From the NCBI GenBank assembly GCA_964641225.1, contig CAZXKC010000005.1:32134-96133 (forward strand): a stretch of 64,000 nt of DNA, written 5' to 3'. Below, piece by piece: positions 2,107 through 31,449 of this stretch. The first letter of the stretch is position 1, and the number at the start of each line of letters is the position of its first letter. The DNA comes from an uncultured Candidatus Saccharibacteria bacterium (GTDB lineage Bacteria > Patescibacteriota > Minisyncoccia > UBA6257 > 1-14-0-10-44-23). Position numbers and translations under genes: made by a program. The notes under the pieces were generated by a model. The model ran no database searches and was not told the origin of the DNA. It saw nothing but the letters and a program-made list of their open reading frames with translations.

Positions 2107-3390
2107 TCCCAATCTGTCGTTTCTCAAGAAAATCCAAAGTCCATGCAGCCAGTATCTCAAGGCGCGTACCGGTTTAAAGATCGAAAGCAGATAATTAAGC
2201 TCAACGATACCTTTCGTTATCCAGGCAAGAATTCCGGAGAAAATAATTGGTCCAAAACGTGCGATCGCGTATTTGCCACCGACGGGCAAGATATAGGGAT
2301 ACTCTCTCGGGTGGTAGCGCTTCATCTTAACGGTATGAATCAAATCTTGTTCTGCGAGGAGTTCTTGCAAGATGTTGTACGCAACAACTTTGCCTTGCTG
2401 GATGGCCGCGCGGGCAACGCCCGGCGTTGGCCGGCCGGTTTTTTTGTCCATAAATGCGACGGCGTCCCCTATTCCAAAAATTTTTGCGCCTAATTTTAAA
2501 TCCTCTGCCTCTGGCAGACTGACCATCTCTTCGGTTACCATCACGCGATTACCGGTCGGGTCTTTTTTCATGCCAAGCGTGCTCATCAAGTGATTTGGTG
2601 CAACGCCGCCTGTCCAGACTAAGATATCGTACTGAGCGCGTTTTCCGCTTTTTAAAATCACTTCTTTTTCCTCTGCTGATTGAATCAGCTCTCCTGTCAT
2701 TACTCCGACGCCAATGCGCGTGAGGCGGTTTTGCGCGCGCGAAATAATTCCCTTGCTAAACGCAGGAAGGATTGTCTGGCCGCCATCAATTATCGTAACT
2801 GAATCGGTACACTGGCCACGCGCAATGCGCGGGAGTTCTTTGAGTAAATTTTTAATTTCGCAGGCAAGCTCAACTCCGGTCGGGCCGCCTCCACCGATAA
2901 TCACTTTTACTGACGGGCGCTCCTCTTTTTCTACGCGCTGGATAATTTCTTCACGAATGTGCAGTGCATCGACAAATGTTTTAAGCGGCAGCGAGTGCTG
3001 TGCCAGCCCGGGAATATTAAAATAATTAACCTGACTACCAAGTGCGAGTACGAGCCAATCAAACGAAAGTGCTGTGCCGCTTTCAAAACGCAGCTCAGCC
3101 TTCATCGGATCGATCTGCGTAACCGTTGATTGAATAAATTCTATAGGCAGTCCGTCTATGATTTCAGTAATTGGCAGCGCGACAATTCGTTTAAGCTGCG
3201 AATTTGAGGCAATCATGTCTGTCGTCGTGGCAATTTCGTACAGCGTTGGCGTAAATGTGTGATAACTATTTTTATCAATTAAAATAACCTTGTATTGCTC
3301 CGTGAGGTTATTTTTTTTAATCCCCCGGGCGATGCTGCGTGCGGTTTGCAGGCCGCCAAAACCGGCGCCGAGGATGATGATTGATTTCAT
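2104..3390 (-). CDS. ndh: Type II NADH dehydrogenase / FAD-dependent pyridine nucleotide-disulfide oxidoreductase
   Basis: N-terminal GAGFGG dinucleotide-binding motif and a second GGGPTG Rossmann motif; 428 aa, typical NDH-2 architecture. Confidence 0.8.
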   Translation of the reverse strand: MKSIIILGAGFGGLQTARSIARGIKKNNLTEQYKVILIDKNSYHTFTPTLYEIATTTDMIASNSQLKRIVALPITEIIDGLPIEFIQSTVTQIDPMKAELRFESGTALSFDWLVLALGSQVNYFNIPGLAQHSLPLKTFVDALHIREEIIQRVEKEERPSVKVIIGGGGPTGVELACEIKNLLKELPRIARGQCTDSVTIIDGGQTILPAFSKGIISRAQNRLTRIGVGVMTGELIQSAEEKEVILKSGKRAQYDILVWTGGVAPNHLMSTLGMKKDPTGNRVMVTEEMVSLPEAEDLKLGAKIFGIGDAVAFMDKKTGRPTPGVARAAIQQGKVVAYNILQELLAEQDLIHTVKMKRYHPREYPYILPVGGKYAIARFGPIIFSGILAWITKGIVELNYLLSIFKPVRALRYWLHGLWIFLRNDRLG

Positions 3391-3520
3391 GCCCTTTAAT
3401 GTACTATGAGCGCGAATAGCGCACTATATTAAAAAATTGACGGTGTAGTCTGTATTACGATAACGATAGCTCAAGTGTAGCAGACTTTAGAAAAAAGCGC
3501 CGTCTGAATTTCGGCCAGAA

Positions 3521-3966
3521 ATTAGAAAGGGGTCCAGGCAGTGACGCGAGGACCCCTCGGGGGTGCCGCACGCGACTCATCAAGGTTGTGCGATGAGCGG
3601 CGGCGGGGAGAGAAGATTCTGGGTGTGAGGCGCTGTGTTGCGGGCGCAGCGCCTCACGGAGCTAAGTTGCGCGGACCGTCCGCGAACGGAGCTTGTGTGC
3701 AAGGAGGAGCCGCTTGCCTACCCTATGAGAGGAGATCTCGGGAGGTCGGGTGTGCTGCGCACTCCTCCTGCAGGAAACAGAAAGATTCAGGATGTGGGGG
3801 TCTCAGACCGGTCGGACCGCTTTGGGGCACGGCATTGTTGAATTTAGCCCTCGGAGGCCTAGACCAGCCGAGGGTCGGAATTCCAGTGCACTCAGTTTCC
3901 CGCGTGCTGTGCCATCTGCCGTTATACGGAACGATTAGGTCCTTTGTGCGAGACCCCCACGATTTC
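3521..3966. ncRNA. High-GC (~62%) non-coding island with extensive secondary structure; candidate structured RNA of unassigned class
   Basis: No credible ORF; those present are only R/P/G-rich artefacts. Hairpins include GTGAGGCGCTG...CAGCGCCTCAC (11 bp), GGGGTCC...GGACCCC and CCCTCGG...CCGAGGG. The two ends can pair (GGGGGTGCCGCAC / GTGCGAGACCCCC). There are short RNase-P-like strings (GGGGAGAGAAGAUUCUGGG, AACAGAAAG) but no complete P4. Confidence 0.3.
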
Positions 3967-6436: not shown

Positions 6437-8977
6437 TTAGCCCCCTTTTTTCCCGAGTAATTTAGCGTATTTTTGGAACTGGTCGCCTTTTTCATTAAAG
6501 TCTTTCCAGAGGCTGTAGCTCGGCGAAGCCGTTGAAAGGAGGCAGATGCTCCCCTGCGGCGTATGTTTATACGCGAACGCAATTGCATCTTTCATTTTTT
6601 CTGTCCGGAAAATGTTTAAGTCGGTTGCTTCTACAAATAATCGATTGCCGGTATCCGGGAACAGTACAATATTTTTGATGCCAGCGACTCTAATTTTTGC
6701 CTCTAGTGTTTTAAAGTCATAGCCGCGATCTTCGCCGCCAAGGAAAATAGTTCCTACGTTTTTCAAAGAACGTAGCGCCATAATTGTTGATTCTGGAGTG
6801 GTCGAAATTGCGTCGTCGTAAAACGTGATGCCTTTAAATGTTCCGACTTTTTCAAGTCTGTGCGGGAGCGGTTTAAAGTTTAGTATTGCTTCTCGAATGA
6901 TTTCATCGGGCACAGAAAGCATTTTGGCGACGGTGACTGCAGCGCGAACATTATTGTAATTATGGACGCCGATTAGTGGCAGCTCGTCTTGGCTGACGGG
7001 AAGCTCGGTCGTAAATGGCACTGTTTTTGACCGCGCCTCTTTCGCCCACTCTACGAGGCGGTGATCTTCAGGGTTAAATACAAATGAGTCGTCGCGACGC
7101 TGGAATTTAATAATGTTCTTTTTAGCCAGATAATACGGCTCCTCTCCTTGATGATACGGCAGATGTTCCGGGAATAAATTTGAAATTACGGCGATGTTTG
7201 GTGAATAGCGGCTGTCGTCAAGCTGGTGGCTCGAAAGTTCTAATACAAAAATTTCCCGTGGATCAACCGAGCGCTTGAGTGCGCCAAGCATTGGTACGCC
7301 GATATTGCCAAGCAGGCTTACTTTTTTGCCGGCTTTTTTGAGAATTGCGTAAATGAGTGAGGAGGTTGTGCTTTTGCCTTTTGTGCCCGTGACACCAATG
7401 GTCAAATTGGAGATTTGTGAGAAAAAAAGATTGGTCGCCGTTGTGTACGGAATACTAACAAAGCGTTTTGGAATACCCGGCGTTTTGATGGCGATATCAA
7501 AGTCGGCCTGCATCTGCAGATAGTTTTTACTACGATTCTGGTCGGCAATTCCAAGTTTGAGTTTTGGGAATTTTTTCCGCATAAATTCCTGCGTCACTTT
7601 TCCTTCTTTGCCGTAGCCAAGAATAAGTGCGGTTTTCATACCCGAAAATCTAAACGGAGCAGGTATCAGAGGTGAATCTTGTGTTTTCATCACTCGAGCA
7701 ATCGTCTCTGGAGTTACGGCTAGCTGGTGTTCAAGCGTTTTAAAGACAATAGTTTTTCCATAAATTTTTCTACTCAAATGCAGTGCAGTCTGTACCTCTT
7801 CAAAGGTTCCCACGCAGTCGAATGGTTTGAGGTTACCCTGCCCTATTAAATCTTTAAAGAGCGGCACGAGTGTTTCATCTTCAAACAAATTTTTTCCAAA
7901 AATTGAGATGAGTTTTTTCTTTGGCAGCCATGGCGCTAGAATCGCAAAGACAAACGCACATTTTGCGCAGACGCCGCACCATTTAGTAGTAGACGGTAGT
8001 GAGTAGTCAGTAGACAGCGGGTTGATTTTTGCGACTGCATTGCAACTACTAAAGGCTGAGAAGTATTTTGGATAGGTGCTGAATAATTTTGCGATCCGCA
8101 ACTCGTAAAATGGTCTCAGAATCGAGAAGTAGGTTATGTTTGGCGTCACAAAATTGCGGATGTATTCCTGAAACAGCGTTTCAAATTCTTGCGACTTACT
8201 CCACTGATGATTAATAATTTCCCCTTTGTATTCTAAATTACCAAAGTTGCTGCTAAATTCGTTGGCAACAATTGTGTAGCGATAATCGTAGAGCGCCGCA
8301 GCAAATACGCCGATCCATGCTAACACTGCAGAAATTGGTATGTGTCCGTTAAAGCTATCGGGGTGTTTTTCGAAAATTTGTGGATCGAGCTCCCGGGAAA
8401 TGATCAGGCTTGGCAATTTGGTCGCCTTCATTACGCTCTGGGCTTGCAGGTTTGGTTTTTGTGTCTCGATTAAGATCGCCGTCGCATCTATTTTTTGCTC
8501 TTTAAGGAGCTCGACGGCAACCAGCGAGTCTTTGCCGCCACCGATGCCGATCAGCGAGCGATTACTGCGTTTAAAATCAACGGATTCCGGGCGATGTTCT
8601 GCCGAGCCTGGGAATAATGCTAGTACGCCCGGCTCAAGGTTGTTGCGATATAAAAATTCGCCCAGACCTTTTCTGTACACGGTGTTCCAAAATATGGCCT
8701 GCTCGGGCGAAATTGGTTGATTAAGTTTGATCTCCGGCGGACAGTAGAGTTTGTAATAGCTGATGCCGATAATCAGGTGTAGTCCCTGTAAAATATTTTC
8801 AAGCAATTGCGGCGGAATATCGGCAGAGATTTTTTGGTTGTATGGAAGCGTCAGTTTTTCGGTGAATATCAGCGGCTGGCGATTTGCAAAATGGATCGTG
8901 TAGTTAAATGAGGCCAGGCGCTTTTCCGGTTCAAATGAATAAAACGTGAATTCAAAAATTGTTGGTTTAAGCGTCAT
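6437..8977 (-). CDS. murD: Bifunctional protein: N-terminal QueC-like PP-loop ATP pyrophosphatase domain with CGxCxxC zinc ribbon, fused to C-terminal MurD-type UDP-N-acetylmuramoyl-L-alanine--glutamate ligase
   Basis: N-terminal half has an SGGxDS-like PP-loop (GIGGGKDS) and WCGVCAKC. C-terminal half has the MurD Rossmann N-domain, Mur ligase P-loop GVTGTKGKSTT and a DDAISTTPES-type C-domain; 846 aa. Confidence 0.8.
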   Translation of the reverse strand: MTLKPTIFEFTFYSFEPEKRLASFNYTIHFANRQPLIFTEKLTLPYNQKISADIPPQLLENILQGLHLIIGISYYKLYCPPEIKLNQPISPEQAIFWNTVYRKGLGEFLYRNNLEPGVLALFPGSAEHRPESVDFKRSNRSLIGIGGGKDSLVAVELLKEQKIDATAILIETQKPNLQAQSVMKATKLPSLIISRELDPQIFEKHPDSFNGHIPISAVLAWIGVFAAALYDYRYTIVANEFSSNFGNLEYKGEIINHQWSKSQEFETLFQEYIRNFVTPNITYFSILRPFYELRIAKLFSTYPKYFSAFSSCNAVAKINPLSTDYSLPSTTKWCGVCAKCAFVFAILAPWLPKKKLISIFGKNLFEDETLVPLFKDLIGQGNLKPFDCVGTFEEVQTALHLSRKIYGKTIVFKTLEHQLAVTPETIARVMKTQDSPLIPAPFRFSGMKTALILGYGKEGKVTQEFMRKKFPKLKLGIADQNRSKNYLQMQADFDIAIKTPGIPKRFVSIPYTTATNLFFSQISNLTIGVTGTKGKSTTSSLIYAILKKAGKKVSLLGNIGVPMLGALKRSVDPREIFVLELSSHQLDDSRYSPNIAVISNLFPEHLPYHQGEEPYYLAKKNIIKFQRRDDSFVFNPEDHRLVEWAKEARSKTVPFTTELPVSQDELPLIGVHNYNNVRAAVTVAKMLSVPDEIIREAILNFKPLPHRLEKVGTFKGITFYDDAISTTPESTIMALRSLKNVGTIFLGGEDRGYDFKTLEAKIRVAGIKNIVLFPDTGNRLFVEATDLNIFRTEKMKDAIAFAYKHTPQGSICLLSTASPSYSLWKDFNEKGDQFQKYAKLLGKKGG

Positions 8978-9064: not shown

Positions 9065-9138
9065 GCGGGCGTAGCTCAGTTGGTTAGAGCGTCCCCCTGT
9101 CACGGGGAAGGTCACCGGTTCGAGTCCGGCCGTCCGCG
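9065..9138 (+). tRNA. tRNA-Asp (anticodon GTC)
   Basis: GCGGGCG-TA-GCTC-AGTTGGTTA-GAGC-G-TCCCC-CTGTCAC-GGGGA-AGGTC-ACCGG-TTCGAGT-CCGGC-CGTCCGC-G; canonical cloverleaf. Confidence 0.9.
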
Positions 9139-9154
9139 CAGAGAAATCAAATTT

Positions 9155-9562
9155 ATGAAAATTTATGCCTGCCGATTGTTACCAGGTAAAGATTTCAGAG
9201 ATGAATTATTCCGTATTATTTCTGAACAAAAAATTCAAGCCGGTTTTATAATCACCTGCGTTGGTAGTTTTTCGACGGCGACTTTACGAATGGCTGGTGC
9301 AACTCCAGGCAAGCAAGATATCAGAACAAAAGAAGGTGAATTCGAAGTTGTTTCTGCCGTTGGCACCTTTTCGCAAGATGGTATGCATGTTCATATGGGC
9401 CTTGCTTCTAGGGATGGTGAATTTTTCGGTGGACATTTAAAAAATGGATGCATTATTAATACCACTATGGAGTTGGTTATTGGCGATAGTCCCGATTGGC
9501 ATTTTTCGCTAGAAAAAGATCCTGAAACTGGCTTCGAGGAATTCGCACCTAAAAAACGCTAA
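9155..9562 (+). CDS. PPC/DUF296-family predicted DNA-binding protein
   Basis: The track ORF 9080-9562 overlaps tRNA-Asp. An internal ATG at 9155 (MKIYACRLLPGKDFRDEL...) gives a 135-aa protein with the DUF296 pattern (GEFEVVSAVGT...HVHMGLA...G...GGHL). Confidence 0.55.
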   Translation: MKIYACRLLPGKDFRDELFRIISEQKIQAGFIITCVGSFSTATLRMAGATPGKQDIRTKEGEFEVVSAVGTFSQDGMHVHMGLASRDGEFFGGHLKNGCIINTTMELVIGDSPDWHFSLEKDPETGFEEFAPKKR

Positions 9563-10340: not shown

Positions 10341-10667
10341 ATGAATATGAATCAAAAAAATGAGTGGGATGGTCCAGAGCGTCGTATTGATCAAGAAAAA
10401 CGAGACGATTTTGACTCGCTTATAAGTATGGCCTCTAAGAAGGTTTATTCAATTGAAGAAACCGGTGAGGAGTGGCAATCTGGCGCTACTATGACAACGA
10501 AGTTTGATTTTGAGAATCCGGATTCTCGAGACGAACAAAGAATCGTCGCTGGTAATACTCTTAAGGAATTTGCGCGGAAACACGGACCTGAAAATGTTCG
10601 CTTTGTTAAGGAGGAGGACGGAAAAGTGAGCGTGTATTTTCGAAAAGTTTTTGCTGAAAAACTTTAA
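10341..10667 (+). CDS. Hypothetical protein
   Basis: 108-aa ORF; no recognisable motif. Confidence 0.4.
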   Translation: MNMNQKNEWDGPERRIDQEKRDDFDSLISMASKKVYSIEETGEEWQSGATMTTKFDFENPDSRDEQRIVAGNTLKEFARKHGPENVRFVKEEDGKVSVYFRKVFAEKL

Positions 10668-13249: not shown

Positions 13250-13440
13250 ATTTATTTCACATTTTTTGGGGAAGCAGGTGGAACTCCTGCACAGTACCGC
13301 TACGGTTATAGTCCGAGCGCCAGAATGTGATTAGTCTCACTGTCTTAATCCTCGAGTAAGGATGCCAGGCGGATTCGGTGCTCTCCCCAGAACCCGAAAC
13401 CGACCACCCCTCTATCTCGAGATGGGTGTTTTTATTTTTT
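13250..13440 (+). promoter_or_regulatory. Structured 5' leader (~190 nt) ending in an intrinsic terminator immediately upstream of the 13451 ORF; candidate riboswitch/attenuator of unassigned class
   Basis: An extended -10-like TGgTACACT lies upstream. The leader has GGGGAAGCAGG...ACGGUUAUAGUCCGAGCGCC...CCCGAAACCGAC motifs and ends in hairpin CACCCCTCTATCTCGAGATGGGTG (13405-13428) plus TTTTTATTTTTT. Confidence 0.35.
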
Positions 13441-13450
13441 ACTTTTAATC

Positions 13451-15718
13451 ATGCCGGAGTTACGACAACCACGATTTGAAGATGAGGGAGCTGCAACAAC
13501 TACTTCAGAGCGGCCTTTTAGTGGTGAAACACTCGAAGAAGAATTGGAGCGCTTAGAGCAGGAGAAAGCGCAAAGAGAATTAGAGGATCGTTTAGAGCAA
13601 GAACGACTTGAAGCAGAAGAACGTGCTGCTGAGGTTGCCGAAGAAGAGGAACGGATTCAGGCGGAAGATATCTCTCTTATCGAAGCGCTTGGTTCGGATA
13701 AGGTTGAAGTTCGATTTGTTGATCCGGCTGATAAGGCAACGTATCCGCAAGCCAGCTCAGATGGACCAAGCCACCAGGATAAGTCTGGGGTTCCCGTAGC
13801 AAGTCTGCCGCAACGTTTTATAGATGGTAAAAGTCAGAATCCAGACGGTACGTTTGTGGTTGATGAGCTCATGCGCTTAGGTAATGCATCGCCTGAGGGT
13901 CTTGCTCGCGCGCAAAAGCATGACAATGATCTCAATACTCTGCAGTATCATATTTCGGAACCCTTCAAGTCATTTAATGGTGATGGAAAAATGTGGAGGA
14001 CGATCACTCGCGTTAATGCTAACGGAGAAGAGGTTGCTCGAAATTATGAGATTGCGCTTCCTAAAAAGGAAGCAGAGGAAGATGATAATGGAGACCTGCT
14101 TCCGGGTGGTACCAGTGAAGGATTAGGAAATGCGCTCGATTCAGAGGACGATGAGGTGGTCGAAGATGGTTTGCTGGATCCTAATTCGGACGGGCTCGAA
14201 TCCTTGTGGGCCGCCCAAATTTCAGAGCTCGAAAAAAGTAAGGCCTTGAAAGATGCAGAGACTCAGCGAGTCACTGCGCTGAATGTTTCGCCTACTTTAA
14301 GTGCTACAGAGCCTAATGTTTCTGTCATAGCTGCGCAGATGCCGGTTTCTGAAATTTTTGCCACTGAGCCAGGCGTTTCGGCGCAGCCTGAGGCTATAAA
14401 GACACCATCGTTATTTACTGAATCCTTCGCCAGCGCACCATCTGCAGTCAATACGACCGAAAATTTTGCTCTAGAAACAGATTCATTCACTCTTGAGGTC
14501 GCAAACCTGTCTACGCCGGAAGATTCTGTTATTTCATCTCTGGAGCATTTTGCCAATACAGAACCAGTTGTTAGTCATGAGGCTGCGCCTGGGGCTATTA
14601 AGGTATCATCTCACGAGCTACCAGTAGCTCGTGGAGCAGTTGATCTTGCAGTTGAGGTATCTGCGACAACGAGTGAAATAATTTCAGAGCCGGTAGCTCT
14701 TGTTCCAGAAATTTTAAGTGAAGAGAGTGTCGCGGAAAATTCAATAGCAACAGATGCAGCTTCAGAGATTAGCAATGAGTTTACGATTAATTTTTCGTCA
14801 GGTGATTTATTTAAGCCTGAAATCGTCCTGGCTGAAACGATGACGAACGGCGCGCAGACGCATACAGAGACATTTGCGCAGCCCGTCTTTGAAACACCGA
14901 CGGTTGAATTTGATGTAGCTCCTGAGGAGGCTATTACAGAATCTGCACCTGTTACAGAGCTTCACGAGGACGCAATGCCCTCCATTGAATCAGCCGCAGA
15001 GGTTGCTTCTATTCTATTTCCTAAAGAAAAATCAGTGCCTGTTGAAGTCGTAGCTGTCGCGCCGGAAATTGCCCCCACTCAAGTTGTAGCTATCCCGGCC
15101 GCACCGAGAGAGGCAATTACGCTGACGTTTAAAAAAGATATCGCGCAACCGACTGTTGCGCGCATAGAAGCAACGAAACCTAAGTCCGTTGAGGTTTTGA
15201 AAGATGAAGTGCCAGCGGCTAAGGCAAAAGAAGTGGTGCCCCCCCCAGCAGAGAAGGCAGAACCAATTCGGCTTGTTCGGAATGAAGCAGCCCCTATTCC
15301 AGTTGCCCGTAAGGCTGAACAGAAACATGTTGATCAATCGCCGAATGTACCTTCGGTAGAGAAATCAGCAGGTAGAATTTTGAAATTTGAAGATGCTGTT
15401 GCTAATAAAGAGCGCCGCTCCCCTTCGCTAACACCTGAAATATTAAAAACACCCGTTCAGAAAATTTCGAATCCGCTTGTACGATCAAAAGTCCCAGAGG
15501 CTGTGCAGCGTCGACAGGAGCGTGAGGAGCTCCCGACTTTTGCTTCTTCAGTTGTTCGGGCTCGAGAGGTTGCGCGAGTTACCCAAGAGGTGCACAATTT
15601 CAAGCCGCGTAGTACGGCTGCTCTGTCTGACATAATCTCACAAGAAACTCGAGAGCGGCGTATTCTAGACATAGAAGACCTACCGGAGGTTGGAATCCGG
15701 ATGCTTCGTCGAGCCTAA
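13451..15718 (+). CDS. Large acidic low-complexity protein (755 aa), function unknown
   Basis: Long uninterrupted ORF in an AT-rich genome, E/A/S/T/V/P-rich with an N-terminal E/R coiled-coil-like region. No signal peptide or TM segment. Confidence 0.55.
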   Translation: MPELRQPRFEDEGAATTTSERPFSGETLEEELERLEQEKAQRELEDRLEQERLEAEERAAEVAEEEERIQAEDISLIEALGSDKVEVRFVDPADKATYPQASSDGPSHQDKSGVPVASLPQRFIDGKSQNPDGTFVVDELMRLGNASPEGLARAQKHDNDLNTLQYHISEPFKSFNGDGKMWRTITRVNANGEEVARNYEIALPKKEAEEDDNGDLLPGGTSEGLGNALDSEDDEVVEDGLLDPNSDGLESLWAAQISELEKSKALKDAETQRVTALNVSPTLSATEPNVSVIAAQMPVSEIFATEPGVSAQPEAIKTPSLFTESFASAPSAVNTTENFALETDSFTLEVANLSTPEDSVISSLEHFANTEPVVSHEAAPGAIKVSSHELPVARGAVDLAVEVSATTSEIISEPVALVPEILSEESVAENSIATDAASEISNEFTINFSSGDLFKPEIVLAETMTNGAQTHTETFAQPVFETPTVEFDVAPEEAITESAPVTELHEDAMPSIESAAEVASILFPKEKSVPVEVVAVAPEIAPTQVVAIPAAPREAITLTFKKDIAQPTVARIEATKPKSVEVLKDEVPAAKAKEVVPPPAEKAEPIRLVRNEAAPIPVARKAEQKHVDQSPNVPSVEKSAGRILKFEDAVANKERRSPSLTPEILKTPVQKISNPLVRSKVPEAVQRRQEREELPTFASSVVRAREVARVTQEVHNFKPRSTAALSDIISQETRERRILDIEDLPEVGIRMLRRA

Positions 15719-15748
15719 TACTGATGTTAAAATACCCTTTTTCACGAC

Positions 15749-17419
15749 ATGGCAACCGATTTCAAAAGAATTGAATATCATAACCTTCGAGCCGAGGCCG
15801 GAAAACTCCCAGCCGTCATTGGCCACACAGAGGAAGTTGAAAGGCTTACGCGCGTTATCAGTCGTCGAATCAATAACAACGCGCTTATTGTCGGTGCCAG
15901 CGGAAGCGGCAAGACAACACTTCTTCGCGGCTGGATTAAACAACTTTGTGCCAACGAGGCATTTGGGCAATTGCAGTTTGTACAATTTGACGCCAGCCAT
16001 CTCCATGATTTAAGTGAGGTTGATGACACGCGGCGTTACCAAGAGGCGTTTGCTACGCTACCGCCTTCTGTTGTCTGCATTGATGGATTTGGTTCTGCTG
16101 CGCAGAATAACGCGGCGCTGATGCAGCGCATTATTCGGCTCTACACAGCATTTTTTAAGAATTCTCAGGTCCGTCTTGTACTCACGCTTTCTCCGAGTGA
16201 GTTTTCCTGGATAGAGCGCGAGTATCCGCAATTTTTGCAATCATTTGAGGTAATTACACTCAAGCAGCAGACGACTATTGAATATATTGCGATGCTGCAG
16301 CACATGCTGCCCCGACTTAATGAAAGTCATAATATTGAAGTGCCTGCCGGTGCACTGCAGGAGCTCGTTGAACTTGTTGAACGGTTTCCAAAATTAGGGA
16401 CACTGCCTCGATCGGCAATTACCCTGCTTGATGAATGTATCGCTGCAGCTGCCGCGTCGGGTTCTAAAACGCTTACTGATGAGCTAGTACAGAACGTAGT
16501 TGCCAGCAAAACTAATATTCCGGTTGCGAAACTGAAACGCAATGAACTCAGCACTGTTCGTAATTTAGAGACAGAACTCAATGAGCGTGTTGTCGGCCAA
16601 GAGGGTGCAATTAAGAAAATTGCTGCCGCACTTCAACGGGCTGCTCTTGGTATGCGTAATCCCAACAAGCCACGGGGTTCCTTCTTAATGCTGGGGCCTT
16701 CGGGAGTTGGTAAAACCGAGACGGCAAAGATGGTTGCAGAAAAAATGTTTGGCAGCGCCGAAAGCTTTATTCGCTTTGATATGAGTGAATTTGCGCAAGA
16801 GCATACTGTGCAGCGTCTGATTGGCGCTCCGGCTGGCTATGTTGGTCATGACGAAGGTGGCGCGCTTACCAATGCACTTCGTGCCCAGCCGCATAGCTTG
16901 ATTTTGCTTGATGAAATTGAAAAGGCGCACCCGAAGGTGTTTGATATTTTCTTGCAGGTACTCGACGATGGCCGTTTGACTTCAGGGCAAAACGAGACGG
17001 TTGATGCGCGTCACGCAATCATTATGATGACCTCAAACATTGCCGTGCCCGGAATTATTTCTGGTATTGAGGCAGGTAGAGATGTTCATAGTGAGCAATT
17101 TATTCAAGAAGAGGTGTTGCCGTCGCTGGCTGATGTATTTCGTCTTGAATTTATCAATCGTTTTGATCACATTCTTGTCTTTAATCCCCTTACGCTGCCG
17201 ACACTCTTAGCGATCGCTCAACTGGAAATCAAAAAGATTGAAAAGCGTTTGGCTAAGCACAATGTAGAATTTCAAATTGATCCGGCGGTGCTTGAGGAGC
17301 GCATAAAGCAACTTGCCGATCCCCGTTTCGGCGCCCGGCCGGTTAAACGATTCATCGAGGAGACGTGTGAGTCATTGCTCGTAAAATCACTTCTCAAAGA
17401 ACATGATATTGCACAGTAA
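15749..17419 (+). CDS. Compact Clp/Hsp100-family AAA+ ATPase (degenerate D1 + canonical ClpA/B D2 domain)
   Basis: D1-like GASGSGKTTLL. D2 matches are LMLGPSGVGKTETAK, the sensor region ...LILLDEIEKAHPKVFDIFLQVLDDGRLT..., and a C-terminal small domain FINRFD...ARPVKRFIEE. No N-domain or M-domain. Confidence 0.8.
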   Translation: MATDFKRIEYHNLRAEAGKLPAVIGHTEEVERLTRVISRRINNNALIVGASGSGKTTLLRGWIKQLCANEAFGQLQFVQFDASHLHDLSEVDDTRRYQEAFATLPPSVVCIDGFGSAAQNNAALMQRIIRLYTAFFKNSQVRLVLTLSPSEFSWIEREYPQFLQSFEVITLKQQTTIEYIAMLQHMLPRLNESHNIEVPAGALQELVELVERFPKLGTLPRSAITLLDECIAAAAASGSKTLTDELVQNVVASKTNIPVAKLKRNELSTVRNLETELNERVVGQEGAIKKIAAALQRAALGMRNPNKPRGSFLMLGPSGVGKTETAKMVAEKMFGSAESFIRFDMSEFAQEHTVQRLIGAPAGYVGHDEGGALTNALRAQPHSLILLDEIEKAHPKVFDIFLQVLDDGRLTSGQNETVDARHAIIMMTSNIAVPGIISGIEAGRDVHSEQFIQEEVLPSLADVFRLEFINRFDHILVFNPLTLPTLLAIAQLEIKKIEKRLAKHNVEFQIDPAVLEERIKQLADPRFGARPVKRFIEETCESLLVKSLLKEHDIAQ

Positions 17420-17735
17420 CGAAAAAGAAAAAATAAATTCGCCGGAGAAGGCAAAGGCTCGAGCTGCGGCAGACGAACGCAGTGAGTCTGGTTTAACGCT
17501 TGCTCAGGTTGAGCGAACGGTCAAAGAACGCGCGGCCATGTTACAAAGTGTTGAGCGCTTTTTACGCGTAAGTACTCGCACAGAATTACGCGAGAAATTA
17601 GAACGTGAACAGAAATTATTGCTTGCACTGGTTGAACGTGAAAAAGAAATGCGTGCACATGCGAAAAAGATGATTCATATTTTGAATAAGGCCTATTTTA
17701 TTCAAAAACCACTTGATATAAGCATCTTCGAATAA
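17403..17735 (+). CDS. Hypothetical coiled-coil protein
   Basis: 110-aa K/E/R-rich ORF overlapping the end of the Clp-like gene by 17 nt. The true start may be further downstream. Confidence 0.35.
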   Translation: MILHSNEKEKINSPEKAKARAAADERSESGLTLAQVERTVKERAAMLQSVERFLRVSTRTELREKLEREQKLLLALVEREKEMRAHAKKMIHILNKAYFIQKPLDISIFE

Positions 17736-17739
17736 CCCT

Positions 17740-19020
17740 ATGTCGTATGTAACTATTGGTATAAATGAATATCGCAGTAAAAAGGTGCCGATTCAGTCGC
17801 GCGAAACTGACCGGCTGCGCCACATGTACATGATCGGTAAAACCGGCGTGGGCAAATCAACCGTGTTTCAAAGTATGTGTTTGCAGGACATCAAGAGTGG
17901 TCAAGGAACCTGCTTTATCGATCCACACGGTGAATCGATTGATTGGTTACTTAAACGTATTCCCGCGGAGCGACTCGAGGACGTCATTTTGTTTGACCCC
18001 AGCGATACTGAGTTCCCTTTTGGGCTTAATTTGCTTGAGGGTCACACCGAGCAGGAGAAAGATTTCCTTGTTTCGGAGTGTATTCAGATTTTTTATAAAT
18101 TATTTGATCCGGAGAAAACCGGTATTATCGGCCCACAATTTGAGCACTGGCTGCGTAATGCCGCTTTGACAGTAATGGCCGGCCCTGAGGGTGGCAGCAT
18201 TATTGAGATTCCAAAATTATTTGTTGATAAGGAATTTGAGATGAGCAAACGCAAGCATTTGACCGATCCTCTCGTGATTGATTTTTGGACAAAGCAGATG
18301 ACCAAGACCTCTGATTTTCACAAGAGTGAAATGCTCAACTATTTTATGAGTAAGTTTGGCCATTTTATGAACAACGCGCTGATGCGCAACATTATTGGTC
18401 AGCATCAGAGCAGTTTTAGTTTTGATGAGGTTATGAGTGGCAAAAAAATATTGCTCGTAAATCTTTCAAAAGGAAAAATTGGCGAGATGAACGCGCATAT
18501 GCTTGGTCTGATTCTTATCTCGAAGCTTCAGGCGGCAATCCTCAAGCGTGCTAATCAACCAAGCGCAGATAGATCTCCGTTCTATTTGTACGTAGATGAG
18601 TTTCAAAATTTTGTCACCGATACCTTTGTCAGTATTTTGAGTGAATCCCGAAAATACGGACTTGGGGCGCATATTACGAATCAATACTTGGCGCAGTTGC
18701 CGGAAAAAATTAAAGACGCGGTGCTCGGCAACGTGGGTACGCTGCTTTCGTTTGAAGTCGGAGCTGAAGATGCCGAATTGTTATCAAAAGAATTCGAGCC
18801 GCTTGAGCCGGCTGATTTTATGGGGCTGCCGCGCTACAACTTTTATATTAAGCTCATGGTCAACGGTAAAACGAGTCCAGCATTTTCTGGTGTGAGCATT
18901 GCTCCGGAGGCTGCTTATGATTCCGGTCTTATGGAACAAAATGTATTCACCCTCAATCGCCTTGCCTTCGGCTCGCCGCGATTACTTGTTGAGCAGCAGA
19001 TAAAGAATCAATTGCAGTAA
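17740..19020 (+). CDS. P-loop NTPase of the DUF87 / TraD-TraG (type IV secretion coupling protein-like) family, soluble form
   Basis: Walker A MIGKTGVGKST, Walker B LYVDEFQNF, and conserved T4CP-like segments (FIDPHGE, FGLNLLEG). No TM helices. Confidence 0.55.
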   Translation: MSYVTIGINEYRSKKVPIQSRETDRLRHMYMIGKTGVGKSTVFQSMCLQDIKSGQGTCFIDPHGESIDWLLKRIPAERLEDVILFDPSDTEFPFGLNLLEGHTEQEKDFLVSECIQIFYKLFDPEKTGIIGPQFEHWLRNAALTVMAGPEGGSIIEIPKLFVDKEFEMSKRKHLTDPLVIDFWTKQMTKTSDFHKSEMLNYFMSKFGHFMNNALMRNIIGQHQSSFSFDEVMSGKKILLVNLSKGKIGEMNAHMLGLILISKLQAAILKRANQPSADRSPFYLYVDEFQNFVTDTFVSILSESRKYGLGAHITNQYLAQLPEKIKDAVLGNVGTLLSFEVGAEDAELLSKEFEPLEPADFMGLPRYNFYIKLMVNGKTSPAFSGVSIAPEAAYDSGLMEQNVFTLNRLAFGSPRLLVEQQIKNQLQ

Positions 19021-23390: not shown

Positions 23391-23434
23391 CCGCGCCTTT
23401 CGGAGTCATTCCGAAGGGCGCGGCTTCTTTTTTT
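23391..23434 (+). terminator. Intrinsic terminator CCGCGCCTTTCGGA-gtcat-TCCGAAGGGCGCGG + CTTCTTTTTTT
   Basis: 13/14-bp stem followed by a T-run immediately after the 23384 stop. Confidence 0.7.
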
Positions 23435-24302
23435 ATACAAGGGAGAAGTACCACCGCGCGAGCACTTCACCATAAAATACGGCTACAAAAAATCCAATTA
23501 CAAGAAATGGACCAAAAGGTACGGCGGCTTTCATAGTGGCGCGCCGACGAGCGATCAAGAGCAGTCCTACCACTGAACCAATTACGAAGGCGGCTGCAAA
23601 GGCAATAATTGAGTCTGGCCAACCAAGAATAAGTGCCAGCGGAATAGCAAGCTTTACATCTCCCATCCCCATCCCCCGTTCTTTTGTTAAGAAGACTATG
23701 CCGCCAAAAATAAGTAGTGCGACTCCTGCTGCAATCAGTGCGCTTATCATTGGAGAATCGGGCGCGCCAAGTGTTGCACCGTAACTACCAAGAAAGCTTT
23801 GATATGGTATAAGTCCAAGAGATTTGATGGTGATCAGAACGATGCCGATTAGGCCGAGTAATATATTAGATTGATCGGGAATCAGTTGAAGTCGTAGATC
23901 GATCGCTGACAGTGTGATGCAGGTGTAGGTAGCTACGAGCCAGAGGCCGATGGTGAGATAAATCCAGATGAGTGAGTGGTCCTGTGACAGTAGCGAAATT
24001 CCTGCCAGATGACGAAATAAAAAGAATGGGAGTATCGCAGTCAGGAGGCCTGTAATTAATTCAATGAGCGGATACTGCCAACGAAGTGGTTTTTTGCAGC
24101 CGCGACAGGCACCGCACTGAATCACAAAGCTAATAATGGGAATTAACTCATACCAGTGCAGCACTTTTTTGCAGTGCATGCAGTGCGATCGCCCTTGTAC
24201 GCGTTTCGTGAAAAAAATAGACTGACCATCTTCGTATCGAAGCGACAGGACATTGATAAAGCTGCCGATTGCAACACCGAAGATAAAAAGAATAGCCCAC
24301 AT
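23433..24302 (-). CDS. pilD: Prepilin peptidase (type IV leader peptidase/N-methyltransferase, A24 family)
   Basis: N-terminal CxxC...CxxC zinc motif (CMHCKK...CGACRGC) and the multi-TM A24 peptidase core with conserved Asp residues. Confidence 0.85.
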   Translation of the reverse strand: MWAILFIFGVAIGSFINVLSLRYEDGQSIFFTKRVQGRSHCMHCKKVLHWYELIPIISFVIQCGACRGCKKPLRWQYPLIELITGLLTAILPFFLFRHLAGISLLSQDHSLIWIYLTIGLWLVATYTCITLSAIDLRLQLIPDQSNILLGLIGIVLITIKSLGLIPYQSFLGSYGATLGAPDSPMISALIAAGVALLIFGGIVFLTKERGMGMGDVKLAIPLALILGWPDSIIAFAAAFVIGSVVGLLLIARRRATMKAAVPFGPFLVIGFFVAVFYGEVLARWYFSLV

Positions 24303-24324
24303 AGCACTTATAATAACGAGTACG

Positions 24325-25395
24325 TCACTTAATCAGCATTCGTAATTCGCTTGGGTTAAGCGAATACAACTCGGCGTTTTCCGGTGTAATCAATTTACGT
24401 TTAACTAAATTTGCCAAGCCACGATTGAGTGTCATCATGCCTTCTTCTGCATTAGTTTCGATGACGACATCGATTTGGTAACCCTTTCGTTCACGGATAA
24501 GATTTCTGATCGCCGAATTAACGATCATGATTTCTGCAACTGGTACGCGCCCACCACCGATTTTTGGAACAAGGCGTTGACTGACGATAGCGACAAGTGT
24601 CGCAGAAAGTTGGCTGATTGCTTGCGTCTGCTGGCCCGACGGGAAGGTATCGATAATACGATCAATAGTTTGGCTGGCTGAATTGGTGTGTAACGTTGAA
24701 AGAACAAGGTGTCCGGTTTCGGCGGCGGTCATTGCGGTACTGATTGACTCTGAGTCGCGCATTTCACCAAGCATGATTACGTCTGGGTCTTGGCGCAGAA
24801 TTGAGCGGAGACCATTTTGAAATGAGGCGGTGTCTGAGCCTACTTCACGTTGAGAAATTACACAGCGGTCTTGAGTAAACTGATACTCAATTGGGTCTTC
24901 GATGGTGATTATATGTTCTGTTCTGGTTTTATTAATCTCATCCATGATTGCTGCAAGCGTAGTTGATTTGCCTTGCCCTGCCGGGCCGACGAGCAACACA
25001 AAGCCTTGCGACAATTTTGCTATATCATGCAAGATGGGCGGAAGATTTAATTCTTCGATTGAGCGAATTTTTGCTGGAATTAAACGAAATGCACCGGCCA
25101 TAAAACCGCGCTGGTAGAATACGTTTGCACGAAAACGAGTGCTATCTCCTTCGTATGTAAATGAGAAGTCCAGCTCTTTATTTGTTTTTAAGCGATAGAG
25201 TTGGTCTGGAGAAAGCAGCGAGGTAATTAATCCTTCGGCAACTTCAGGAGTTACAATAGGCTCTGCTTCAAGCGGTACGAGTGAACCGTCAAGACGAATA
25301 TTTGGTTTTTTCCCTACCGCAATGTGCAAGTCTGACGCATTTTGTTTTGCTGTTGTAGACAGCAATGAGTTCATGTGTTGCTTAAAGTTTTCCAT
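24325..25395 (-). CDS. pilT: Type IV pilus retraction ATPase PilT
   Basis: Walker A LLVGPAGQGKSTT, Asp box, Walker B and His box; PilT length (356 aa). Confidence 0.85.
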   Translation of the reverse strand: MENFKQHMNSLLSTTAKQNASDLHIAVGKKPNIRLDGSLVPLEAEPIVTPEVAEGLITSLLSPDQLYRLKTNKELDFSFTYEGDSTRFRANVFYQRGFMAGAFRLIPAKIRSIEELNLPPILHDIAKLSQGFVLLVGPAGQGKSTTLAAIMDEINKTRTEHIITIEDPIEYQFTQDRCVISQREVGSDTASFQNGLRSILRQDPDVIMLGEMRDSESISTAMTAAETGHLVLSTLHTNSASQTIDRIIDTFPSGQQTQAISQLSATLVAIVSQRLVPKIGGGRVPVAEIMIVNSAIRNLIRERKGYQIDVVIETNAEEGMMTLNRGLANLVKRKLITPENAELYSLNPSELRMLIK

Positions 25396-25527
25396 ACCGG
25401 GCAGTAGAAATGCGAGTTTTTAATTACAGTTTTTAATATATTTTTGGTACACCTTCAAGCAAACCACCACCATAGACTGTTTTTTGAGAAATTACGTTGC
25501 TCGCATTTTCACTGCCCGGCAGGTTCT

Positions 25528-26619
25528 TTACATTAAGTCCTTTATAGCTAAACCAAGTGCGACCGTGAGTGTAGCATTAAGTTCCGGTAAAATAGTGGTT
25601 AGTTCGGGAGGATATGCAACGGTTGTCCCGAGTGCGGTTGCATGTGTTGTTGGCAATTTGAGCTGATCTATCACGTACTGCTCTATGCCTTTGAGTTGCG
25701 ACCCTGCTCCACAGAGCACTACATTAGTAACCTGCTCTCCTGTCGCCGTAGTAAAGGAATTCATTGCCCGTCCTGCTTCAGAAAGTATAGCACCGATAAC
25801 CGGCGCAACGATCGTGGATAACTCATGTCCGCCGGCCGTTGTTGCAATGGTGCTTTGGCGTTTTAATGCCTCTGCCCTGCCAACGCTGATCGCCAAGGCC
25901 TGGGCTACTGTTTGAGTTGCCGAGTCGCTACTAAAGTCGGTCTGGGTAAGCGTATATACGACCCCGTTTTTTGCCACCGTACAGGTGCTGGAGCGACCGC
26001 CGATATCGATAATCAGCGTTGGTTCTTTGGTTGCGAGGGTTACGGCTCGCGCAATACTAATACTTTCAAGCTCAATATCTTTGATGGTGAAGCCGGCTTT
26101 TTTTGCAACATTCGTGTATTCATTAACACGATCTGTTGGGATCGCCATAAACAGAATTTTCTGATGCTTGACTCCGTCTGGATGCATAACCTCACCAACG
26201 TGCACCCATCTGATTGTTGTTTCGGTCATAGGCAACGGCAGGTATGCGCTTGCAGCAGCCATTGCTGCTGCCTCGAGTGCTCGATCTGAGGTGCTGCTGG
26301 TAGGAACATCAATAAGTGCTGTTTGGGCTATAAAAGCAGGTAGTGCGAGGTTTGCCGCAAGAGTTTTAAACTGTGCTTTATTTCGGATTTCTACTAAATA
26401 TGCATATAGATCGTCGCTTAATGGATGTAAGCTGCTCGATTGAAGTGCATTATTTAAGGTGTTTGAGCGATCTGCCAGCTCAAGCATGGCATAATTTGTC
26501 AGAGTGCGAGCGCCTTGCACGTTCGTCACCTCGGCAACTTTAATGCTGACGGTGCCGATATCGATACCTAGGCTTACTGACGAGTTTTTTGATTTCTTAA
26601 ATCTTCCAAAAAGTGACAT
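25528..26619 (-). CDS. pilM: Type IV pilus assembly protein PilM (actin-like ATPase)
   Basis: N-terminal MSLFGRFKKSK...LGIDIGTVSIKVAEV actin-fold phosphate-1 motif. Start moved to the internal ATG at 26617-26619; the track's 72-aa N-extension looks spurious. Confidence 0.8.
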   Translation of the reverse strand: MSLFGRFKKSKNSSVSLGIDIGTVSIKVAEVTNVQGARTLTNYAMLELADRSNTLNNALQSSSLHPLSDDLYAYLVEIRNKAQFKTLAANLALPAFIAQTALIDVPTSSTSDRALEAAAMAAASAYLPLPMTETTIRWVHVGEVMHPDGVKHQKILFMAIPTDRVNEYTNVAKKAGFTIKDIELESISIARAVTLATKEPTLIIDIGGRSSTCTVAKNGVVYTLTQTDFSSDSATQTVAQALAISVGRAEALKRQSTIATTAGGHELSTIVAPVIGAILSEAGRAMNSFTTATGEQVTNVVLCGAGSQLKGIEQYVIDQLKLPTTHATALGTTVAYPPELTTILPELNATLTVALGLAIKDLM

Positions 26620-26641
26620 GATACGATAATACCATATTTGT

Positions 26642-27361
26642 ATGTTGTCTTCGCTGCGAGAACATATACTTAATACTCTGTTTCCTCCTATTTGCATTGC
26701 CTGCAAGAAAGATCTTGCAAAAGATACTGCGGAATCTATTCTGTGTGTTTCATGTATGCATTCAGCCACTATGCAGCCGCAGTTAAACTGTTCTGTGTGT
26801 CGTCGTCGATTGCCGTTTGGCGAGGCTGGCATATTGCCGCGCTCTTTGCGATGTCATCCGAGCGCCTCTCATCTAATTTTTTCAGCATGCTCATATGAAC
26901 ATCCCGTCATACGGGCATTAATTTGGCATTTGAAATTTAAACGACAGACAGAAGCAGCTCAGATTTTAGGAAAATTTCTTGATGCTGCGCTCAGAGAATC
27001 GGGTATAGATCTGACTGACACCCGCGCCGTGCCGCTTCCCCTATCTGCGGCTAGATTACGAGATCGTGGTTTTAACCAAGCGGAATTAATTGCGCGCCAA
27101 TTGCATGCGCCCATCGATCATCTGCTTGTACGCATGAAGCATACACATCCGCAGTCAGAAATTGCACGTTGGGATCAGCGACGTATAAATATTGCAGGTG
27201 TTTTTGCGTTAGTAACGCATGCAGTTATTGATGACCGCGAGATTGTATTAATTGATGACGTCTGGACCTCTGGAGCAACTATGAGTGAGGCTGTGGCTGT
27301 ACTAAAAGAAGGCGGAGCACGTGATGTGCTGGCGATTGTGGTTGCCCGGGCTGGGCAGTGA
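26642..27361 (+). CDS. comF: Competence protein ComF (ComFC, phosphoribosyltransferase-like)
   Basis: N-terminal Cys-rich zinc finger (CIACKK...CVSC...CSVCRRR) and C-terminal PRTase motif VLIDDVWTSGAT. Confidence 0.8.
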   Translation: MLSSLREHILNTLFPPICIACKKDLAKDTAESILCVSCMHSATMQPQLNCSVCRRRLPFGEAGILPRSLRCHPSASHLIFSACSYEHPVIRALIWHLKFKRQTEAAQILGKFLDAALRESGIDLTDTRAVPLPLSAARLRDRGFNQAELIARQLHAPIDHLLVRMKHTHPQSEIARWDQRRINIAGVFALVTHAVIDDREIVLIDDVWTSGATMSEAVAVLKEGGARDVLAIVVARAGQ

Positions 27362-30204: not shown

Positions 30205-30729
30205 TTAATTATTAGATGGAAACAGTGTCGGTGTTAGGTACTTTACCACAAGCTCATTAAATTTTTCAATTAACGTATCGGAAATTCGTAGTTCGTTCAT
30301 GCTTTGAAGTGGCGCGGTGATTATGTTACCTTGCTTTGAAATAAAGGGGGCGTGAGAAATTCGAAAATAGGGCTTTTCTGAACAATTTACGAAAACTATA
30401 AGTGTCTCCTGCCAGAGCTCGCCCAATTTGCGCAGTTTTTTAATATCATTTTCGTGACCGTCCGGGTGCCAGCGGAATTTTACGTCAATAAGGTAGGGTT
30501 TTCCTTTGCTGCCAACAACTAAAAAATCCGGAATTGCACGTAGCTTTATACCTATCTCTGGATGACGCTCCAGCATATCCTCAATGGCAAGCGTTTGAGG
30601 TAGGACGCTTTGGTGTCCAATTGGATAGACATCGTTGCCGGATTCCAGCAGTAGATCGGCAACAAGTGACTGGGCCATGCGAGCCTTGAGGTTAGTTTCG
30701 CGCCTATCTTGTTCTTTTGTGCGCTTCAT
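30205..30729 (-). CDS. PD-(D/E)xK nuclease-superfamily protein (restriction endonuclease-like fold), function unknown
   Basis: Motifs in order: AIEDM (E), IPDFLVV (PD), YLIDVKFR (D-x-K); 174 aa. Confidence 0.5.
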   Translation of the reverse strand: MKRTKEQDRRETNLKARMAQSLVADLLLESGNDVYPIGHQSVLPQTLAIEDMLERHPEIGIKLRAIPDFLVVGSKGKPYLIDVKFRWHPDGHENDIKKLRKLGELWQETLIVFVNCSEKPYFRISHAPFISKQGNIITAPLQSMNELRISDTLIEKFNELVVKYLTPTLFPSNN

Positions 30730-30762
30730 ATGGGCAGTTTAACATAAACGCAAAGGGGCCTG

Positions 30763-31278: not shown

Positions 31279-31449
31279 GTTCTACCCTGCTTTCTGTGTA
31301 GGGTCCTTAAAAAAACGAAAGGCACCACAAGGCGCCTAAATCAATACTAGCAAAAAAAGTTAACAAAATCAATTGGAGTTCAAAAATGAGTTAGGACCCT
31401 CTTACGCGGGGTCCCTTTACGGCTCCTTGTGGGAGCGGTGCTGCGACGA

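Follow-up and report, generated by a model that had tools for sequence, protein, structure and literature searches.

What kind of machine combines a reduced Clp ATPase with an ATPase of the VirD4/VirB4/HerA branch, and why should both be encoded directly behind a long acidic protein that resembles no known family? This question is raised by a group of four co-directional genes, here termed A, B, C and D, located at positions 13451-19020 of a 64,000-nucleotide (nt) stretch of DNA from an uncultured Candidatus Saccharibacteria bacterium (GenBank assembly GCA_964641225.1, contig CAZXKC010000005.1, positions 32,134 to 96,133); the whole of this stretch is referred to below as the window. The current analysis indicates that these genes very probably constitute a vertically inherited, conserved operon of Paceibacteria-type Patescibacteria that is controlled by a B12 riboswitch. 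All four open reading frames (ORFs) were confirmed, and the features of the locus are as follows:

13257..13330, + strand: AdoCbl-II aptamer in the 5' leader of A (Rfam RF01689)
13405..13447, + strand: terminator-like hairpin and U-tract, a putative OFF-switch expression platform, from sequence and RNAfold
13451..15718, + strand: gene A, 755 amino acids (aa), acidic and largely disordered, without a family match
15749..17419, + strand: gene B, 556 aa, ClpB/ClpA-type double-AAA+ ATPase
17403..17735, + strand: gene C, 110 aa, small and probably helical, overlapping the end of B by 17 nt
17740..19020, + strand: gene D, 426 aa, soluble P-loop ATPase of the VirD4/VirB4/HerA branch, starting 4 nt after C

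Linkage of the cassette and the riboswitch in its leader

The linkage of these genes was examined among GTDB species representatives, with loci grouped by the identity of their D to that of the window. B lies immediately upstream of D in each of the 35 loci with a D identity of at least 60%, and the order is A-B-C-D throughout; this arrangement of B and D occurs in none of the approximately 50 loci whose D is at most 56% identical, which stem from Berkel-, Doudna- and Peregrini/Peribacteria. The cassette has characteristic proportions (A 300-1021 aa and acidic, B ~555 aa, C 80-125 aa, D ~426 aa), an ortholog of C stands between B and D, and neighboring genes either overlap or are separated by gaps of 3-30 nt. 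The same cassette was reached from other anchors, both from the D side (P0120, P0109, P0003 and P0004) and from the B side (P0227). Its flanks vary between loci, with RecG, LytR, Mur ligases, Pif1 and DsbD among the products encoded there, and with no flanking gene family common to more than six of 30 loci, and the cassette is single-copy, found in varied housekeeping surroundings and fixed in its clade. Within the window, A-B-C-D form a transcription unit of their own, bordered on the left by genes for a tdh-like epimerase and a kbl-type aminotransferase and on the right by gatA-gatC-ligA, all of which lie on the minus strand. The original prediction had described three co-directional genes with a short ORF between them and had regarded them as a nonstandard operon specific to the candidate phyla radiation (CPR). 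Each of these genes lies where it had been placed, their linkage persists amid unrelated flanks, and the independent scattering of the genes in related genomes that had been considered as a counterargument was not seen.

The individual genes of the cassette differ widely in their conservation. Between the window and its closest syntenic relative, locus L086, identity is 81% for D, 75% for GatA, 68% for LigA, 64% for B, 46% for C and only about 25% for A, which is essentially unalignable. Judged by these identities, selection constrains D more strongly than it does core enzymes of translation and replication, which sets D apart from defence genes and from the coupling proteins of plasmids.

Genes of a type IV pilus are located near the cassette in the window, and the module could conceivably be an accessory of this neighboring pilus or competence machinery. 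The original prediction had placed it near pilD, pilT, pilM and comF: pilD, a pilT-like gene and pilM are indeed present at 23433-26832, beyond ligA and 4.4-7.8 kb downstream of the module, and are found likewise in the syntenic L086, whereas comF was not confirmed; no type IV secretion system (T4SS), ClpP or ComF gene was found among the scanned ORFs of the window. The opposite-strand genes gatA-gatC-ligA intervene between D and the pilus genes, however, and pilus genes occur within about 8 kb of the cassette in just one of the 35 loci, namely L086 itself, the flanks being otherwise unrelated. The association is accordingly incidental, and a role as a pilus accessory is extremely improbable.

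The leader of A is more informative, as a cobalamin riboswitch is among the more reliable genomic pointers to functional context. In the window, the AdoCbl-II aptamer (RF01689; AdoCbl, adenosylcobalamin) is matched with 56.2 bits against a gathering score of 36.5 (E 4.6e-11), the full model being covered; it lies on the strand of A and ends 121 nt upstream of the A start codon. Matches at or above the gathering score were found immediately 5' of A, always on its strand, in 17 other cassettes as well, and are spread over three families of clan CL00101 (RF01689, RF01482 and RF00174), while three further cassettes yield sub-threshold Rfam matches at the equivalent position. Of the 30 non-redundant cassettes for which a leader was available, 28 have the element 5' of A according to a custom covariance model built from seven of the Rfam-matched elements, including seven missed by Rfam. 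Just one weak match of this model (E about 0.005, inside an ORF) was encountered elsewhere in 1.13 Mb searched on both strands. No cobalamin riboswitch was present in the ten searched loci of long-form D relatives, which lack A-B-C. Covariation across the 28 elements supports the helices: 88% of cells are paired, and the covariation score is 0.424, compared with 0.120 in shuffles (none of 500 attained the observed score) and with 0.121 at the highest after sliding of the pairs, with 56 doubly compensated cells observed vs 23 in shuffles, all in an alignment fitted to the model that had been built from 7 of these 28 sequences. The sole custom-model match outside the cassette leaders (L037, 7443-7512, + strand) lies within the ORF of a long-form D and is probably a false positive.

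Downstream of the window aptamer, a CACCC...GGGUG hairpin is followed by UUUUUAUUUUUU, ending 4 nt before the ATG of A, as read from the sequence and folded with RNAfold; the terminator scan did not pick this hairpin, its loop being longer than the limit of the tool. By a simple heuristic, a hairpin with a U-tract lies within 330 nt of the aptamer in 18 of the 28 leaders, and within 100 nt in approximately 15. These elements are putatively terminator-type expression platforms. A scan for sigma-70 promoters returned 8 sites, equal to the number in shuffles (mean 8.0). The riboswitch had not figured in the original prediction, nor had the C-terminal tail and N-terminal domain of A described below.

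The four proteins and the readings that they suggest

Protein A is acidic, as had been predicted, with an isoelectric point of 4.5 and an Asp plus Glu content of 19%, and its disorder is evident from a single-sequence AlphaFold model in which 621 of 755 residues have a predicted local distance difference test (pLDDT) score below 50; order is predicted for a helix at the N-terminus, for a beta-hairpin at 181-201 and for short helices near the C-terminus. It has no match in Pfam, NCBIfam, PADLOC or PHROG, a search among 5.8 billion proteins recovered just A itself, and BLAST among its positional orthologs yielded nothing. The family is detectable only through terminal motifs and iterative hidden Markov models (HMMs), and the acidic composition is common to all positional orthologs. 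At the N-terminus, iterative HMMs recover a block of ~120-130 aa in 24 of 31 orthologs. Residues ~74-216 of window A can be aligned plausibly to this block, and the alignment takes in both a near-invariant His and the terminal hairpin. Toward the C-terminus, about half of the orthologs share a block with the motifs ILRALGIP and RYSPPQND.

The most distinctive part of A is its extreme C-terminus. The consensus tail of the orthologs is LNGI[TS][LM]RRAA-COOH (G-I-x-M-R-R-A-A type), and the window protein ends in ...GIRMLRRA. A terminal -AA occurs in 19 of 28 orthologs (21 of 31 with three more included) vs 6 of 401 other ORFs of the same loci, and a regular expression for the tail finds 19 matches among 1,310 ORFs, 18 of which, including that of the window, are the ORF directly upstream of B. 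The mean net charge of the last 30 residues is +1.65, vs -3.7 per 30 residues elsewhere in the protein. C-terminal -LAA or -AA ends of the ssrA type are read in the axial pores of Clp ATPases such as ClpX and ClpA, and T4SS substrates carry positively charged C-terminal signals; the tail of A resembles both by analogy. A search for transfer-messenger RNA in 34 Paceibacteria loci, intended for a comparison of ssrA ends with the -AA of A, found none. Despite its hypervariability, A is, as far as can be read from sequence, a genuine component of the operon.

Protein B had been predicted to be a Clp ATPase in which D1 is degenerate, D2 is complete and the N- and M-domains are missing, and Pfam, alignments to PDB entries and 31 orthologs bear this out. 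Pfam assigns AAA_16 and AAA_lid_9 within residues 24-248 (AAA_lid_9 at 179-248), AAA_2 at 307-474 and ClpB_D2-small at 482-551, and B aligns to residues 178-721 of ClpA. Compared with Thermus thermophilus ClpB, the D2 module scores 286 bits and D1 38 bits. B thus shares with ClpB, ClpA and ClpV the tandem AAA+ modules, the ClpB-type D2 and the D2-small domain. It differs from them in the following respects: 1) B begins at the linker before D1, its residue 12 pairing with ClpB residue 162, and no Clp_N domain was matched; 2) there is no M-domain, the D1 lid (179-248) passing straight into D2; 3) D1 is degenerate family-wide; and 4) B is always encoded with A, C and D. It is ~300 residues shorter than ClpB and falls far below all NCBIfam equivalog cut-offs (398 vs 1232 for TIGR03346). 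In the D1 of the 31 orthologs, the P-loop G..G.GKT is kept and Walker B reads iDDFG (IDGFG in the window), with no conserved Walker B Glu, Arg finger, sensor-1 or pore-loop Tyr, while all D2 motifs are canonical (Walker A, Walker B, GYVG pore loop, sensor and Arg finger). On average, the D1 half of the orthologs is 41% identical to that of the window, and the D2 half 65%. Like ClpB and ClpV, B has no ClpP-docking loop: by inspection, no IG[FL] tripeptide is present and the alignment to ClpB D2 is gapless across the loop region 'TSNIAVPGIISGIEAGRD...'.

The short ORF between the two ATPase genes, which had been described as helical, encodes C, and this protein is probably helical. C has no match in Pfam, NCBIfam, PADLOC or PHROG and is 41-46% identical to its closest relatives, with a C-terminal motif, L[ND]..YF.QK.LD, conserved across 27 orthologs. 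These alignments indicate that C is a real protein family.

Together, B and C could be explained without any export. According to this view, B and its adaptor C would unfold cytosolic clients under B12 limitation, such as apo- or damaged B12 enzymes, and A would have a regulatory role, for instance as a polyanion that plugs or inhibits D until B removes it by means of its tail. Such intracellular remodeling would suit four proteins that have neither transmembrane (TM) segments nor signal peptides and a cassette to which no membrane partner is linked, the -AA end of A resembles ssrA-type tags, and a precedent exists in CagZ with Cagbeta (PDB 8dol), a small helical protein regulating the ATPase of a type IV coupling protein (T4CP) that is among the top fold matches. 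However, a degron reading of the tail gives no degradation, as B has no ClpP loop, and B is also without the M-domain required for DnaK-coupled disaggregation. Furthermore, neither the ancestry of D from membrane-anchored forms nor the hypervariable length and sequence of A would be explained. We consider remodeling of this kind unlikely.

Protein D was expected to be a soluble TraD/DUF87-like P-loop ATPase, and so it appears. Its Pfam matches to TrwB_AAD_bind, TraG-D_C and DUF87 are weak; its Walker A (GKTGVGKS) and Walker B (YLYVDEF) motifs are both invariant, and it starts ~30 residues before Walker A, with no hydrophobic N-terminus or TM anchor. The AlphaFold model (pLDDT 76, predicted TM score 0.78) has a P-loop nucleoside triphosphatase fold with a helical insertion between Walker A and Walker B, and the nearest Foldseek matches are the coupling proteins DotL and Cagbeta, with structures of VirB4 and HerA matching as well. 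D exhibits the RecA-like core, the Walker A and B motifs and the structural likeness to HerA, VirB4 and FtsK by which the FtsK-HerA superfamily is recognized. Judging from the model, 'T4CP-like' is a fair description of the look of D, as distinct from strict membership among the T4CPs. D resembles the T4CPs (VirD4, TrwB, DotL and Cagbeta) in its nearest Foldseek matches and in its TrwB_AAD_bind and TraG-D_C matches, and its long-form relatives carry the typical N-terminal TM anchor, which D itself lacks. A soluble T4CP is known from plasmid pIP501, where TraJ is anchored by the separate protein TraI (PMC12857230).

The relationship between D and these longer proteins is evident from its homologs. 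The best 120 of thousands are 71-84% identical, all about 426 aa in length, and belong to Paceibacteria-type lineages (Parcubacteria, Kaiser-, Wolfe- and Nomurabacteria, and some labelled Magasanikbacteria). In other CPR classes, the D-like region makes up the C-terminal ~425 aa of a protein of ~825-870 aa that begins with one or two TM helices, followed by a middle domain of ~350 aa. With a cut-off of E<=1e-3, an exhaustive search retrieved 19,981 cluster representatives, of which 5,073 remained at E<=1e-30; in nearly all of the top 150, the ATPase starts at residue ~370-430 or further in, and free-standing forms of ~430 aa are rare. An HMM of the long-form N-terminal region (TM helices and middle domain), used to ask whether the gene had been split, matched nothing in the window or in any cassette locus.

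VirD4-like homologs are nearly universal among Patescibacteria, being present in 2,918 of 3,035 genomes (96%) vs 2,417 for VirB4, and just 148 of 5,713 such homologs lie near virB4; their role is open, and exaptation has been suggested (Quinonero-Coronel et al. 2025, PMC12102498). D is most likely one of these 5,713, and the short, soluble form linked to A-B-C represents one sub-clade of a group whose members are mostly anchored proteins of ~850 aa. No association of D with virB4 or a relaxase was found in the window or in recurrent cassette flanks. Neither a Clp partner nor an acidic partner nor a riboswitch is mentioned in that study (PMC12102498).

The superfamily of D includes DNA pumps, and it is conceivable that D is a DNA translocase of the FtsK/HerA/VirD4 kind that assists in the uptake or processing of DNA for deoxynucleotides when a B12-dependent ribonucleotide reductase fails, with A, B and C serving to regulate or load it. 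B12 riboswitches commonly repress B12-independent substitutes, and the conserved riboswitch control of the cassette would then follow the same logic as that of nrdAB, nrdDG and metE. D also has a weak N-terminal match to the DNA-translocating ATPase CedD, and its very high conservation would suit a universal substrate such as DNA. DNA uptake is moreover an essential source of nucleotides in Saccharibacteria, according to a review (PMC12857230). However, the CedD match is confined to the P-loop, no competence gene is linked to the cassette, and such a bypass of B12 shortage would leave both the Clp protein unfoldase and A, hypervariable and acidic and with its specific tail, without a role. This explanation is decidedly unlikely.

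The original prediction had also raised the possibility of an ATPase-based defence module. In this scenario, HerA/DptH-like and Clp-like ATPases would act against phages or in other conflicts, with A as a fast-evolving sensor or decoy. PADLOC does report mad8 at 1e-12 for both the N-terminal half of B and for D, HerA and DndH for D, and PDC-M37B and DolB for the D2 of B; the hypervariability of A would fit as well, and divergent short D-like genes do occur in neighborhoods of the defence or mobile genetic element (MGE) type. The PADLOC matches, however, are to generic AAA and P-loop regions, and no nuclease, SIR2 or other effector is encoded in or beside the cassette, which is single-copy, occupies varied housekeeping contexts and is controlled by a metabolite riboswitch, while D is more conserved than GatA and LigA. 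The PADLOC and PHROG matches were accordingly rejected as signs of a defence or phage origin, being generic to ATPases, and PHROG 5156 corresponds to the long form of D. A role in defence is highly improbable and, like that of a pilus accessory, much less likely than either B12 bypass or intracellular remodeling.

A proposed function in the cobalamin economy

Repression by corrinoid would place the operon within the cobalamin economy of the cell, as part of either corrinoid acquisition or compensation for its shortage. Based upon the features above, the following mechanism can be envisioned. When corrinoid is plentiful, the leader would terminate transcription, and when it is scarce, the operon would be expressed. 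A would be the dedicated client of two ring ATPases, with its positively charged C-terminal tail serving as the handle; that A is a client of B and D has, in our estimation, about an even chance of being correct. B would form a ClpB-like hexamer in which only D2 is active, and since it lacks the ClpP-docking loop, it would presumably thread or unfold A, with no degradation. Since B also lacks a substrate-selecting N-domain, C is probably its adaptor. D, having neither the membrane anchor nor the ~350-aa middle domain of its relatives, would link the chain being threaded to a channel in the envelope. In the most speculative step, the N-terminal domain of A would capture corrinoid at or beyond the cell surface, borne upon a long acidic tether. 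Alternatively, the module may compensate for B12 shortage rather than relieve it. Taken as a whole, from the riboswitch operon through the threading or export of A to a corrinoid role, this chain is tentative and somewhat doubtful; export and corrinoid acquisition by the module, considered by themselves, are possible at best and rather more likely to prove wrong than right.

Several observations weigh against this mechanism: 1) none of the four proteins has a transmembrane segment or signal peptide; 2) no channel or T4SS gene was found in the window or beside any cassette; 3) the fold of D is not specific to T4CPs; 4) corrinoid binding by the riboswitch and the OFF direction of the switch are both inferred from established riboswitch behavior; 5) corrinoid binding by A finds no support, its N-terminal block matching no known family, with nothing significant retrieved by the profile of this block from PDB and Pfam; 6) the match of window A to the HMM of this block is marginal (E 0.2), and the C-terminal block was not detected in window A; and 7) the t4cp homolog of S. 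epibionticum is non-essential. The last of these, together with the presence of T4CP-like genes in more genomes than VirB4, argues against an obligatory coupling to a T4SS.

Parallels to this mechanism can be found among known systems, all of which differ from the cassette in major respects. Type VII secretion combines a cytosolic AAA+ protein, EccA, with a coupling ATPase of the FtsK/HerA superfamily, EccC, and its substrates have C-terminal signals. B is not homologous to EccA, however, D is soluble with a single ATPase domain, and there are no ESX membrane components or WXG substrates. The type I secretion of the HasA hemophore and RTX proteins involves acidic, largely unfolded substrates with an uncleaved C-terminal signal, a dedicated ATPase and nutrient-repressed expression. 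The cassette is reminiscent of these systems by analogy only, in that an acidic putative client with a tail is combined with an ATPase and with presumed repression by the nutrient being sought. The ATPase families are unrelated, and no ABC transporter, membrane fusion protein or outer-membrane factor accompanies the cassette. Published accounts of the Mycobacterium tuberculosis ppe2 operon and of Bacteroides BtuG/BtuH describe cobalamin riboswitches over secretion-associated or surface B12-capture proteins (PMC11260477, PMC6143338). The likeness consists of a riboswitch on genes whose products are neither transporters nor enzymes of the classical kind; there is no sequence relationship, and the set regulated here comprises the ring ATPases B and D together with the small C and the disordered, acidic A.

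A bolder version of the proposed mechanism resembles a fishing line. Under B12 starvation, the N-terminal domain of A would be cast out as a corrinoid-binding hook and then reeled back. The polyanionic tether, 200-900 residues long, would span the envelope and reach the host cell, while the RRAA tail would be held by the cytoplasmic ring ATPases, such that the ClpB-like motor and the VirD4-like ATPase would reel in the chain from its C-terminus. This version is very unlikely. If true, it would represent a hitherto unrecognized type of machine for scavenging vitamins and a new protein-translocation pathway of Paceibacteria composed of a Clp unfoldase and a coupling-type ATPase, and would account for the near-universal orphan T4CP homologs of Patescibacteria. 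More generally, the export or reeling of a scavenger protein would mean that cofactors are acquired by a new route and that an AAA+ protein is paired in a new way with an FtsK/HerA-type motor. Patescibacteria account for a large part of the diversity of bacteria and are thought to be host-dependent for cofactors.

For one large clade of the orphan VirD4-like ATPases, the operon provides a defined set of partners, and its riboswitch supplies a physiological input signal. The component families and the orphan VirD4-like genes of Patescibacteria were known already. No earlier description was found in the literature of the Clp partner, the acidic tail-bearing partner or the cobalamin riboswitch control; no paper joining 'cobalamin riboswitch' with 'Patescibacteria' was returned from the library searched, and searches on Clp with T4CP and on B12 with ribonucleotide reductase in Patescibacteria likewise yielded no account of the system. 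There is a real chance that the operon encodes a categorically new machine.

Relatives of D in other contexts and further features of the window

Beyond the cassette, relatives of D were encountered in a variety of gene neighborhoods. Two other short D-like proteins (P0297 and P0350) do not belong to the system described here, as they lie beside transposase or defence-type genes, with no A-B-C among their annotated neighbors. A divergent short D-like ATPase (440 aa, 44% identity) is encoded amid defence-type genes and an integrase in L091 (1714-14578), its neighbors including SIR2_2, PD-(D/E)XK, RadC, a ResIII helicase, AAA_15 and an N6_N4 methyltransferase. This locus looks like a defence or MGE island, suggesting that the wider D family has members in conflict systems as well.

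The long-form relatives have distinct surroundings of their own. In L050 (9382-13632), the gene directly downstream of a long, anchored D encodes a 1,416-aa protein with Big_7, FG-GAP, a reprolysin-like peptidase and PT-HINT (pretoxin) domains, which resembles a secreted protein of the polymorphic-toxin type. Among Berkelbacteria-type loci, L035 (11797-15240) and L036-L038 encode a second TraD/DUF87-like paralog of ~1,030-1,150 aa, which follows the long-form D at a distance of up to about 2.5 kb, with one to three small ORFs in between; the assignment rests on Pfam for the L035 paralog (1,147 aa) and on size and position for those of L036-L038. The small ORFs of L035 include a 342-aa Sigma70_r4/HARE-HTH protein. 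In Peregrinibacteria, exemplified by L063 (4070-10822), the long-form D is flanked by genes for PG_binding_1, DPBB (an RlpA-like lytic transglycosylase), YbaB and YceG/MltG proteins, surroundings that correspond to cell-wall and nucleoid housekeeping and not to a T4SS.

The syntenic locus L086 differs from the window in two ORFs, one with LAGLIDADG_3 upstream of the cassette (3031-3648) and one with GIY-YIG directly after D (10344-10655). Both resemble insertions of the homing-endonuclease type and both are absent from the window.

The remainder of the window consists of the usual housekeeping genes of Patescibacteria, among them those for a Mur ligase, PheS, GroEL, polysaccharide synthesis and a P-type ATPase. 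A tRNA-Asp lies at 9065-9139, and the mechanically called ORF 9080-9562, encoding a PCC-domain protein, starts inside it; its true start must be downstream, probably at the Met before KIYACRL. On the minus strand at 6437-8977, an 846-aa protein whose sole Pfam match is Mur_ligase_M at residues 529-657 is apparently a Mur-type ligase with an uncharacterized N-terminal extension of ~500 aa. Local GC content rises to 0.53 at 44001-46000, compared with about 0.41-0.48 around it; this stretch has no Rfam match and contains a 239-aa ORF (44522-45241, + strand) with no Pfam match. Lastly, four consecutive ORFs (174, 171, 135 and 304 aa) with no Pfam match at 1e-5 occupy 30205-32997 on the minus strand, downstream of the P-type ATPase gene and several kb past pilM/pilT/pilD, and may be pilin-like or CPR-specific.

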